DNA of 30,793 bases from Alphaproteobacteria bacterium (GTDB lineage: Bacteria > Pseudomonadota > Alphaproteobacteria > Rickettsiales > UBA6187). The position numbers and the translations under genes were made by a program. Under the pieces are notes generated by a model. It was not told the origin of the DNA. It saw only the letters and a program-made list of their open reading frames with translations, and did no database searches. The stretch's first letter is position 1. The number at the start of each line of letters is the position of its first letter. The stretch spans positions 1 through 30,793 of the forward strand of contig JAJRPW010000109.1 in assembly GCA_024280585.1 (NCBI GenBank), given 5' to 3'. Shown here piece by piece: positions 27,809-30,117 of the stretch.

Positions 27809-27826
27809 TAACAAAGGCAGTGCTTA

Positions 27827-27970
27827 CCACTCCTTCCCCCTTTAAGGGGGAAGGTTGGGATGGGGGTGTTTTGTGCTAGCAAAAATAACTTATAGTTCGT
27901 TCACCCCCACCAAAATATTTTACTCACTTCGTTCGTCATATTTTGACTCCCCCCTTAAGGGGGAGTGGGG
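27827..27970. repeat. Pair of oppositely oriented BoxC-like palindromes, the second with an internal hairpin
   Basis: CCTTCCCCCTTTAAGGGGGAAGGTTGGGATGGGGG (27827-27866) and CACCCCCACC-AAAATAT...ATATTTT-GACTCCCCCCTTAAGGGGGAG (27903-27970). Confidence 0.7.
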
Positions 27971-27982
27971 TCAGAGTGATTT

Positions 27983-28381
27983 TTAAACCTCTCTTTCACT
28001 ATTTGCTTTCCTGCGGGCTAGTTTAGCAACTTGTGTGTCAGGGGTGGCTGCCTCTTTTCCGTTAACTAAATAGTTGAGAGTTTCGTAAATCGCAACTGAA
28101 AGTAAACCTTGTCCTGCTAGGCGTGCCATACCAATAAACTCTTTTAGAGTTGGAAGTGGAGGTGGAACAAGCAGCAGCATCTGTTGTTGTCTCGGTTCTT
28201 CTGCGTTGCTAATTTCAGGTATTGTTTGCTCTTCACTGCAAGGAGTTGTGCAAAAATACTTTGTTAAAGCAAAAGTCATAAGACTGCCCATGGCTATGGC
28301 AATCACAGCAAGAGTATCCTTAGAAAGGTTCTGCGAAGAGTTTTTTTCTGCTTTTGTCCTACTTACTGCTGTTTTTGGCAT
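27983..28381 (-). CDS. Small protein with two hydrophobic segments (cassette 1)
   Basis: GAGGA RBS upstream; TLAVIAIAMGSLMTFAL and FIGMARLAGQGLLSVAIY; C-terminus RRKANSEREV. Confidence 0.65.
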   Translation of the reverse strand: MPKTAVSRTKAEKNSSQNLSKDTLAVIAIAMGSLMTFALTKYFCTTPCSEEQTIPEISNAEEPRQQQMLLLVPPPLPTLKEFIGMARLAGQGLLSVAIYETLNYLVNGKEAATPDTQVAKLARRKANSEREV

Positions 28382-28394
28382 GACTCATTCCTCA

Positions 28395-28453
28395 ATAATA
28401 GTTTAAAAATTAATAAAACCTATTCGTAACGTTTTTTTTGCAGAGTCAAGGGG
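28395..28453 (-). repeat. 59-bp upstream/promoter block, copy 1
   Basis: Identical to 30059-30117; contains a minus-strand TTGACT; lies directly upstream of the 28381 ORF. Confidence 0.9.
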
Positions 28454-28468
28454 GATTTTGTTTTGTAT

Positions 28469-28520
28469 ACCCCTCATCCTAACCTTCTCCCCAAAAAAGG
28501 AGAAGGGACGTGGCAAAGAG
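28469..28520. repeat. BoxC-like palindrome with a 22-bp tail shared with 29553-29574
   Basis: CCCCTCATCCTAACCTTCTCCCCAAAAAAGGAGAAGGGACGTGGCAAAGAG. Confidence 0.75.
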
Positions 28521-28560
28521 AGCCTCAGAGAAAAATAAACCAACCAAAAAGGAAATAATC

Positions 28561-29403
28561 ATGAAAATTATATCAACACAGCTTGATGCCCATTTGGCAT
28601 TGGAAGTAACCACTACCGCTACCTGTTGGAAGCTGACGCGGCGGGATGCAACCGTGTTTGGGTTCACCAATCATGATCAGGATTTGGTGGTGGGTGGTGT
28701 CACATATCAGGCAACGAGCGGGTTTACACCCAGCGCGGTGGCAAATAATTCGGAGCTTTCCGTTGATAATCTCGACGTGGAAGGGGTTATAGATAGCGCG
28801 GTGATCGCGGAGGCGGATATCCAGGCGGGGCTTTATGACTATGCGCAGGTGGAGATTTTCATCGTAAATTACGCGGATTTAACGCAAGGGGCGCTGAATC
28901 TACGCACCGGCTGGCTCGGCGAGATCAAGTTTAGTAAGAATAAGTTTGTGGCAGAGGTGAGGGGGCTTATGCAAAACCTGGCGCAGGGAATCGGCAGTCT
29001 TTATTCGCCGTCATGCCGGGCAAAACTGGGCGATGCAGAATGTGGGATAACGCTGGCGAGTTTCACTGTTACAAGCAGCATCACAGCCGTTACAGATAAT
29101 CAGGTTTTTGCCGATTCAAGCCGGGCGGAGGCGGATGGATATTTTGCAGGCGGGGTGATTACCTTCACAAGCGGGCTCAATAATGGCCTGGCAATGGAGG
29201 TCAAAGAATTTGTCGGGGGGCTTGTGACGCTGGTTTTTCCAATGGCTTATACGGTGGCAGTGAATGATACATATTCGATGTATGCTGGGTGTGATAAGAG
29301 TTTTGGGACTTGCGGCACTAAGTTTAGTAATGTGGTGAATTTTCGGGGCGAGCCGCACGTGCCGGGGATTGATAGGGTGCTGAAAACGGCAGGGACGATT
29401 TAG
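28561..29403 (+). CDS. DUF2163 baseplate hub protein (RcGTA g13-like)
   Basis: AAGGA RBS before ATG 28561; TTATCWKLTRRD..VFGFTNHDQDL, CRAKLGDAEC and GCDKSFGTCGTKFSNVVNFRGEPHVPG. Confidence 0.95.
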   Translation: MKIISTQLDAHLALEVTTTATCWKLTRRDATVFGFTNHDQDLVVGGVTYQATSGFTPSAVANNSELSVDNLDVEGVIDSAVIAEADIQAGLYDYAQVEIFIVNYADLTQGALNLRTGWLGEIKFSKNKFVAEVRGLMQNLAQGIGSLYSPSCRAKLGDAECGITLASFTVTSSITAVTDNQVFADSSRAEADGYFAGGVITFTSGLNNGLAMEVKEFVGGLVTLVFPMAYTVAVNDTYSMYAGCDKSFGTCGTKFSNVVNFRGEPHVPGIDRVLKTAGTI

Positions 29404-29427
29404 GGAAGCAAAGGGCAGTGCCTATCG

Positions 29428-29574
29428 CCCCCCTCTCCCTGTGGGAGAGGGTCGGGGTGAGGGCCGGGATTAACTTTATTTCGGAAAATTCTGTTAGCTC
29501 CTGCCCTCATTCCTGAAACAAGTTCAGGACAGGCTGCACCTTCTCCCACATCGGAGAAGGGACGTGGCAAAGAG
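29428..29574. repeat. Two BoxC-like palindromes, the second with a nested CCTGAAACAAGTTCAGG hairpin
   Basis: CCCCCTCTCCCTGTGGGAGAGGGTCGGGGTGAGGG (29428-29463) and CCCTCATT-CCTGAAACAAGTTCAGG...CCTTCTCCCACATCGGAGAAGGG. Confidence 0.7.
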
Positions 29575-29655
29575 CAGAGTCAGAGTTCTTTTAACGCTCT
29601 ATTTCCTTGGATACTTCGGTCAAGTCTAAGTATGACGCTTTACTGTGTAGTTCTT

Positions 29656-30045
29656 TTAACGCTTTATTTCGCTACTTGCTTCCCTGCGGGATGTTACTGC
29701 TTCGGCATGTGTTTTTTCTTTGGCTTTATCGGCTAAGTTTAATAAGAGGTCGTTAATGCAACTAACTGCTAAGAAAGGAATAGTTGTTAAGCAAGATGTT
29801 AAGGTAAGTATTACTGATAAGGGTGATTGGAGAACAGGGACTATTACTTCGTATGGGATCGCACAATTTGGGGGGGCTTCTAGTCCTTCTGCACCTTCAT
29901 TAGTATTCATTTTATCTTCCCAGTGTCTGTAATCACTTTTCAGGTCTCCGCAGTCCTCAAGATAATTTTGTAAAGCAACAGTGGCGACAAAGCCTACAGG
30001 GAGTAAACACATACAAATCTGAGCAAAAGTCTCCGTTTTGGACAT
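29656..30045 (-). CDS. Small protein with two hydrophobic segments (cassette 2)
   Basis: AAGGA RBS upstream; ICMCLLPVGFVATVAL and LSVILTLTSCLTTIPFLAVSC; C-terminus KTHAEAVTSRREASSEIKR. Confidence 0.65.
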   Translation of the reverse strand: MSKTETFAQICMCLLPVGFVATVALQNYLEDCGDLKSDYRHWEDKMNTNEGAEGLEAPPNCAIPYEVIVPVLQSPLSVILTLTSCLTTIPFLAVSCINDLLLNLADKAKEKTHAEAVTSRREASSEIKR

Positions 30046-30058
30046 AGTAATATTCCTT

Positions 30059-30117
30059 ATAATAGTTTAAAAATTAATAAAACCTATTCGTAACGTTTTT
30101 TTTGCAGAGTCAAGGGG
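30059..30117 (-). repeat. 59-bp upstream/promoter block, copy 2
   Basis: Identical to 28395-28453 (offset 1664 bp). Confidence 0.9.

Follow-up and report, generated by a model that had tools for sequence, protein, structure and literature searches.

Clusters that resemble the gene transfer agent (GTA) of Rhodobacter capsulatus (RcGTA) are usually described as compact conserved operons. What, then, are small orphan genes doing on the opposite strand at two consecutive tail-gene junctions of such a cluster, and why do both share an identical upstream block while their coding regions can barely be aligned? We address this question for contig JAJRPW010000109.1 of the Alphaproteobacteria bacterium assembly GCA_024280585.1 (Rickettsiales, UBA6187). 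The window that was analysed is the entire contig (30,793 nt, i.e. 30.8 kb) and derives from the draft genome of an uncultured bacterium (1.53 Mb, 205 contigs, 78% complete, 41% GC). According to a Pfam and open reading frame (ORF) survey, its plus strand carries an RcGTA-like head–tail cluster. The answer that we favour, with a probability of roughly 0.6, is that the two units (hereafter cassettes A and B) are duplicated orphan membrane-protein morons (i.e. extra genes of the kind known from phage tail operons) within the GTA-like tail module, and that their common head has been kept identical by short-tract gene conversion.

Cassette A (about 27809–28545) occupies the junction between genes g12 and g13, and cassette B (29404–30128) the stretch from g13 to the promoter of the conserved gene that follows. 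Both contain a core unit of about 490 nt that consists of a tail (the 3' untranslated region and the last ~9 codons), an opposite-strand ORF of about 130 amino acids (aa), a Shine–Dalgarno (SD) site and a 70-nt upstream block, which we call the head:

27983–28381, minus strand: ORF A, a 132-aa orphan small membrane-type protein; SD site GAGGAA 6 nt before the ATG; GC content at third codon positions (GC3) 0.30
28395–28464, minus strand: head block, copy 1, the presumed promoter or upstream region of ORF A, with CTTGACT (−35-like) and ending in TATTAT in the orientation of the ORF
29656–30045, minus strand: ORF B, a 129-aa orphan small membrane-type protein; SD site AGGAA 7 nt before the ATG; GC3 0.33
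30059–30128, minus strand: head block, copy 2, whose right end is the right boundary of the insertion

The two head blocks are direct repeats with 97% identity, of which 59 nt match exactly (pairwise E-value 5e-27). Both are separated from the ATG by 13 nt, and the first four codons of the two ORFs are also in common. At the 3' ends of the ORFs, 37 nt are 81% identical (27981–28017 versus 29654–29690). Shuffle tests gave z-scores of 42 for the head and 10.4 for the tail, and the boundaries of identity are sharp. No such likeness of head or tail was found at the DNA level to the other cargo genes of the window, the Fic-like gene included, only between A and B. Five of the 10 aligned codons in the shared tail differ non-synonymously and one synonymously, which indicates that the tail likeness reflects recent nucleotide identity rather than protein constraint. 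By contrast, the ORF centres have no significant similarity (BLASTP E-value 15; global protein z-score 1.5): 24 of 500 codon shuffles attained the centre-only DNA score, and 627 of 1000 shuffles the centre-only protein score, neither of which we judge to be significant. Three collinear DNA patches occur between the units, one of them a marginal 24-nt patch. The original prediction had described barely alignable ORFs behind an identical upstream block, and the mosaic is real, with an identical head, a similar tail and centres that are not demonstrably homologous. All of its coordinates are correct, including the exact identities over 59 nt (28395–28453 = 30059–30117) and 22 nt (28499–28520 = 29553–29574), and its two minus-strand ORFs of ~130 aa are confirmed at 132 and 129 aa, both beginning with MxKT and finishing with RRxAxSE plus three residues.

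The two ORFs have the properties of genes. We scored them with dicodon statistics learned from the genome's own long ORFs, with 408 same-size shadow ORFs as the reference. The scores are 0.286 for ORF A (above 99.3% of shadow ORFs) and 0.230 for ORF B (above 98.5%), and both lie inside the range of stand-alone 100–200-aa ORFs (quartile 0.197, median 0.341). Such coding-type statistics, together with well-spaced SD sites, mark both as probable real genes. Their predicted products differ in detail. ORF B has two hydrophobic segments at residues 6–27 and 66–105 (Kyte–Doolittle ≥1.4), while ORF A has a single clear one (22–41) and a weaker amphipathic helix; the plan of two hydrophobic segments that had been proposed for both is thus clear in ORF B only. 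Single-sequence AlphaFold models of both proteins consist of a helix, a long loop and a helix, at low confidence (predicted local distance difference test score ~60), and the C-terminal tails are basic and polar. These models suggest a common plan of an N-terminal transmembrane helix, an acidic Cys/Pro loop, a second hydrophobic or amphipathic helix and a basic tail, and a probable location in the membrane.

We then compared the two junctions with those of related genomes (G001, G002, G005, G008 and G009), in which the gene order g10a–g10b–g12–g13–small ORF–DUF2335 is kept across the family. The conserved genes that border the cassettes are:

27206–27808, plus strand: GTA g12-like distal tail gene (DUF2460; Pfam PF09343, E-value 2e-76; GC3 0.55), left neighbour of cassette A
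28561–29403, plus strand: GTA g13-like hub gene (Gp84_N and BR0599 domains, from Pfam), with cassettes A and B on either side
30147–30411, plus strand: ancestral promoter-like motif (TTGCYT-N17-TATA-like) and small membrane ORF (30217–30411), found after g13 family-wide and right neighbour of cassette B

The content of the same junctions in the relatives is:

G005 and G009: 18 nt between g12 and g13; about 70–90 nt between g13 and the next gene
G002: hairpins only at both junctions
G001: a 389-aa ORF between g12 and g13; about 170 nt after g13
G008 (related genus): three ORFs, two with ankyrin repeats, between g12 and g13; an ankyrin-repeat ORF after g13

At these junctions the window has gaps of ~740 nt (cassette A) and 725 nt (cassette B). 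Across genera, the small ORF keeps its promoter-like motif, which in the window stands directly right of block copy 2; since this copy abuts a conserved promoter region, the end of the block is also the end of the insertion. Judged by synteny, the comparison shows both cassettes to be lineage-specific insertions at two junctions that are reused within the family. The orthologues of g13 within the family are 64–71% identical. The ankyrin-repeat genes of G008 lie at 3120–4001, 5004–6596 and 7703–9112 of locus L024.

The remainder of each cassette is made up largely of GC-rich palindromes, which are triplex-hairpin motifs of the BoxC/PIT/TMECO type. Their published three-block consensus consists of a pyrimidine block, a loop of 3–6 nt, a complementary purine block, 3 nt and a second purine block (PMC4666352). 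The repeat-related features are:

27812–27823, no strand: lead-in motif of cassette A, whose CAGTGC-YTAYCRC part recurs beside a BoxC-like copy on contig C85
27832–27965, no strand: double BoxC/TMECO-type element of cassette A (three-block motif 27832–27865 and an inverted partner ending at 27965; relaxed consensus match)
28465–28520, no strand: BoxC-type element in reverse orientation with a 14-nt tail, 97% identical over 37 nt to contig C125 and holding the 22/33-nt block common to cassette B
29409–29421, no strand: lead-in motif of cassette B, from the motif search
29431–29574, no strand: double BoxC-type element of cassette B, with an inverted partner hairpin (29539–29560) followed by the shared 14-nt tail
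29584–29670, no strand: 22-nt duplication of the last four codons and stop of ORF B (29584–29605 and 29649–29670) around an inserted hairpin-repeat copy (29606–29648)

Genome-wide, the family numbers at least 19 strict hairpins, which are spread over 12 contigs, as well as 13 three-block motifs, and six of the 19 strict hairpins sit in the GTA part of this contig (window 11000–30200; 2% of assembled bases). The segment 27830–27966 is a mosaic of repeat copies that match contigs C44 (93% over 77 nt), C115 and C120 (96% over 56 nt). Strong folds are predicted for the double elements of cassette A (27832–27965; −60.3 kcal/mol, z-score −4.1) and cassette B (29431–29574; −69.3 kcal/mol, z-score −6.0). 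Within the latter, 29431–29463 fits the published TMECO consensus (Holder et al. 2015, PMC4666352) exactly, as one of three strict matches in the genome, and the remaining copies deviate from it only slightly; the best match in E. coli (85% over 40 nt) is an unannotated intergenic sequence of BoxC type. Like the published repeats, these copies are dispersed, intergenic, close to gene ends and located at junctions that vary between relatives. Unlike them, they often form inverted pairs of ~130–140 nt and are enriched in the GTA region, and one is read in frame within the terminase gene.

Genome-wide, the repeats lie mostly 12–100 nt past stop codons, with at least eight between convergent ORFs and one between divergent ORFs. 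This habitual position 3' of genes means that the succession of a gene stop, palindromes and a convergent ORF is a general habit of the genome and not a signature of the cassettes. The shared layout that the original prediction had pointed out is indeed present in both cassettes, but the dispersed repeat family accounts for its lead-in motif, its palindromes and the greater part of the 22-nt block, which are therefore not specific to the cassettes. The 22-nt identity itself extends to 33 nt at 85%, and an 8-mer common to 27970–27977 and 29579–29586 has 21 genomic copies, no more than chance would give. The inserted copy at 29606–29648 belongs to a dispersed hairpin repeat of 33–36 nt that is also found on at least 15 other contigs, and the tail remnant in cassette B is explained by the landing of this repeat in the 3' end of ORF B with a 22-nt duplication. 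A duplication of 22 nt around this copy is unusually long for a target-site duplication. Raised local variability has been reported for BoxC/TMECO loci (PMC4666352), and as part of our best explanation the repeats may mark structurally unstable junctions.

In the terminase gene, a three-block repeat at 12261–12296 (relaxed match) is read in frame inside the large-terminase ORF (11391–12794). It adds ~17–20 residues that are missing from the G008 and G009 orthologues, and in the G001 orthologue this loop contains another, different insert. The repeat resembles the in-frame palindromic elements of Rickettsia.

The structure of the cassettes is real and tidy, and its anatomy is now largely explained. 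At their ends, the two units are clearly of common descent. A head that has diverged by 0–3% beside a centre that cannot be aligned is a contrast for which uniform divergence cannot account, and recent gene conversion or recombination of the head would be the simplest cause of 59 identical nucleotides out of 59 beside saturated coding sequence. In the scenario that we favour, (i) an RcGTA-like tail module of phage origin would have received two lineage-specific moron-like insertions, at the g12–g13 junction and ahead of the promoter of the gene that follows g13; (ii) the two units would descend from one another; (iii) the heads (0–3% divergence) and tails (19%) would have been kept alike, or recently made alike, by short-tract gene conversion or recombination; and (iv) the centres would have diverged past recognition or been replaced. 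Conversion would be confined to the block that is still identical. Replacement of the centre is the alternative to conversion of the head; given the equal length, the similar helix–loop–helix plan and the marginal 24-nt patch, we lean towards diverged paralogues. Each unit would then presumably be transcribed independently, in convergent orientation to the GTA genes, and encode a small membrane protein of the bacterium.

The head block would act as the promoter of the minus-strand ORFs. Its −35-like heptamer is perfect, and the same heptamer occurs in the promoter of a Fic-like gene in the window. As RNA, the block is unstructured, with folding no better than that of shuffles on either strand (z-scores +0.8 to +0.9), and an unstructured two-copy block fits a promoter or upstream region. 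The same test ruled out a structured RNA or an attC-like site in the block. An Rfam scan of 27000–30793 gave only one sub-threshold match, which lies outside both cassettes. Downstream of the ORFs, the hairpin elements are very stable but lack a U-tract. The 70-nt direct repeats, which are 1,664 bp apart, could also make g13 and ORF B deletable by homologous recombination. Transcripts that run on from the cluster promoter would be antisense to the convergent units, and the units might in turn interfere with GTA read-through.

Morons were defined in phages, with HK97 gene 15, a gene for a small inner-membrane protein in the tail operon, as the founding example (PMC3594210; Juhala et al. 2000; Cumby et al. 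2012). Judged by the comparative and compositional criteria for morons (PMC3594210), the cassettes would belong to this class: they are extra DNA between tail genes that are adjacent in relatives, and their composition is unlike that of the flanking genes. The GC3 of the ORFs (~0.3) resembles that of other cargo, in contrast to 0.55 and 0.56 in g12 and g13, and the inserts match the genome-average GC of 0.41. Like HK97 gene 15, each is complete in itself: a small ORF with a predicted membrane-type product, an upstream block of its own and flanking hairpins. The differences are that the cassettes reside in an RcGTA-like cluster instead of a prophage, that the ORFs lie on the opposite strand, and that two sister units with an identical head flank one structural gene; moreover, the ORFs have no sequence relation to gp15 or YebO. 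A title and abstract search for morons in RcGTA-like clusters found no publication, which is no proof of novelty.

Several points weigh against the explanation that we favour. The hexamer 17 nt downstream of the −35-like element is poor, a consensus scan detects no promoter on the minus strand of the block, and promoter-like matches in the region are not above shuffle expectation. BoxC/PIT elements are reported to have shown neither terminator nor promoter activity in E. coli (PMC4666352), so the terminator status of the hairpins is presumptive. Both ORFs are orphans that score low in language-model recognition, and their folds are of low confidence. With the assembly 78% complete, further copies could be unassembled, and two copies are too few to distinguish gene conversion from very strong selection or from recent promoter capture.

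Searches for relatives of either unit were consistently negative. The 70-nt block has only two copies in the draft genome and none elsewhere in the assembly; no further copy was found in 40 relatives (AT-rich chance matches only) or in public genome or metagenome contigs. The genome-wide search for more ORFs downstream of the block, which should have listed a family of payloads, therefore returned none beyond A and B. No paralogues of either ORF, promoter-less donors, or silent or partial copies were found in the assembly at the DNA or protein level. Pfam has no family for either ORF, a word-indexed search of 5.8 billion proteins gave no homologue of either, and the ESM Atlas contained nothing for them. 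A full HMMER search of 1.84 billion representatives with ORF B returned only itself, and a six-frame search of 150 genomes of the order with ORF A gave no homologue but two chance-level matches with internal stops. Close strains sought through g13 yielded only metagenome loci of ≤46% identity and no genome contigs.

The competing explanation that survives best, though we regard it as unlikely, is compatible with the moron anatomy and concerns function: the ORFs would encode host-targeted membrane effectors that are exported by type IV secretion, with the basic C-terminal tail as a signal. VirD4 and VirB4 homologues are encoded elsewhere in the genome, outside the window; the same junctions in a related genus hold ankyrin-repeat genes, a typical effector class; the window contains Fic-like and other cargo; and the tails are basic and polar. 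The stretch of ~40 hydrophobic residues in ORF B could be a bilobed domain like that of the chlamydial inclusion membrane (Inc) proteins (~40–60 residues), as had been suggested, and the bacterium appears to be host-associated. However, ORF A has one 20-residue segment and no bilobed domain, neither ORF has a sequence or family match to Inc proteins, and these belong to a different phylum and secretion system. The first helix is strongly hydrophobic in both proteins. As judged from translocated membrane effectors, such a helix favours co-translational insertion into the inner membrane. In addition, the tails are alike at the nucleotide and not the protein level, with no DNA-level tail likeness to other cargo genes. 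Another reading, for which the odds are lower still, is that in this endosymbiont-like family the GTA-like cluster serves as a landing pad for accessory host-interaction genes, with BoxC-type repeats as recombinogenic junctions. The twin units would then be a modular expression cassette with a fixed promoter head and a fixed tail; its central payload would be exchanged or diversified within the population, and convergent transcription would set its expression against GTA read-through.

The same arrangement could also be read as a modular expression cassette, in which the head and tail are recombination anchors and the centre is swapped from a pool to give a variable membrane-protein family. 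Expression-site antigenic variation (e.g. Anaplasma msp2/p44 and Neisseria pilE/pilS) combines conserved ends, a dissimilar centre and a membrane-associated product, and it depends on a single expressed copy with several promoter-less donors and on payloads that vary within populations or strains. The cassettes resemble these systems in that their 5' and 3' ends are conserved at the nucleotide level around unalignable centres, with sharp identity boundaries; cassette B has a duplicated tail remnant, and BoxC-type repeats linked to local instability flank both units. Unlike in those systems, there are only two copies, both with the upstream block, and no promoter-less donor pool: silent or partial donors were absent from the assembly, 40–150 relatives and public collections. 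Furthermore, the tail remnant is explained by the dispersed hairpin-repeat insertion and its 22-nt duplication, and both proteins keep the same length and helix–loop–helix plan, as expected of diverging paralogues. We therefore consider swapping from a pool doubtful. The original prediction of an expression-site or gene-conversion system stands insofar as conversion or recombination of the head would be the simplest cause of its identity, but an expression site or variable family is unsupported, because there are two copies only in the 78%-complete assembly, both with the block, and no donors were found.

A similarly small chance is given to the possibility that the block works on the plus strand, as a promoter or regulatory element from which g13 and the small ORF with DUF2335 are transcribed anew after the repeat-laden inserts, the minus-strand ORFs being incidental. 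Matching plus-strand promoter-like sites (9/12 each) occur at 28375–28402 and 30039–30066, with the −35 element in the conserved first codons of the ORFs and the −10 element at the block start, and g13 would otherwise rely on read-through across cassette A. These matches, like the others in the region, do not exceed shuffle expectation, and the gene after cassette B already has a family-conserved promoter right of the block. Both ORFs also have coding-type dicodon scores, SD sites and equal spacing to the block, and two open frames of 130 codons are unlikely to arise by chance in intergenic DNA of 41% GC.

It is very improbable that the ORFs are accessories of the particle system, for example a holin/antiholin-like pair or, like HK97 gp15, an exclusion protein that keeps out the DNA of sibling particles. 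In favour are the small size of the membrane proteins, their charged C-terminal tail, their place within a tail module and the precedent of HK97 gp15, a moron product of the inner membrane that is encoded in a tail operon (PMC3594210). Against it are the opposite strand, the lack of an endolysin neighbour, the long acidic loop, which is atypical for holins, and the absence of the ORFs from all related clusters, which means that the particle does not need them.

Three other candidates were set aside. Diversification by a diversity-generating retroelement does not fit centres that are unalignable, and no pair like a template and variable repeat was present. An integron gene cassette does not fit a block without significant fold (z-score > 0) and a structural gene between the cassettes, and no integrase was seen in the window survey. 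Misassembly at the repeat is unlikely, as the gene order of the contig agrees with the family synteny. A DUF559 nuclease, considered as a partner of cassettes framed by BoxC-type repeats, was sought as well, and no such gene was found in the 78%-complete genome.

If this pattern of orphan and ankyrin-repeat genes at the same tail-gene junctions holds, it suggests that phage-derived particle clusters of small-genome, host-associated alphaproteobacteria collect accessory genes as prophages collect morons, and it would tie a long-unexplained BoxC/triplex repeat to gene-insertion junctions. The twin cassettes are also a small, clean test case for promoter homogenization by gene conversion. As they stand, the two genes are lineage-restricted orphans, and their immediate biological impact is modest.

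The cluster that surrounds the cassettes includes a terminase C-domain, portal, capsid, connector, a tail-terminator/tube fusion, DUF2460 (g12) and the hub protein (g13), and it is broken up by minus-strand cargo genes. The ORF and Pfam survey of the window revealed neither an integrase nor replication genes; the cluster is nonetheless phage-derived. Family-wide, g13 is followed by a membrane ORF of 60–80 aa and a DUF2335 membrane protein, not by g14/g15-like genes (window 30147–30793; loci L021–L025). Tandem paralogous genes (171–180 aa; window 25871–26930) lie between the tail-tube fusion and g12 and are kept across the family, and no gene of tape-measure size occurs between these two in any relative examined. 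The distance from terminase to g12–g13 on a single contig is 294 kb in G009 (contig C10) and 211 kb in G005 (contig C7); in the window genome, the head and tail genes lie within one 19-kb stretch (11391–29403).

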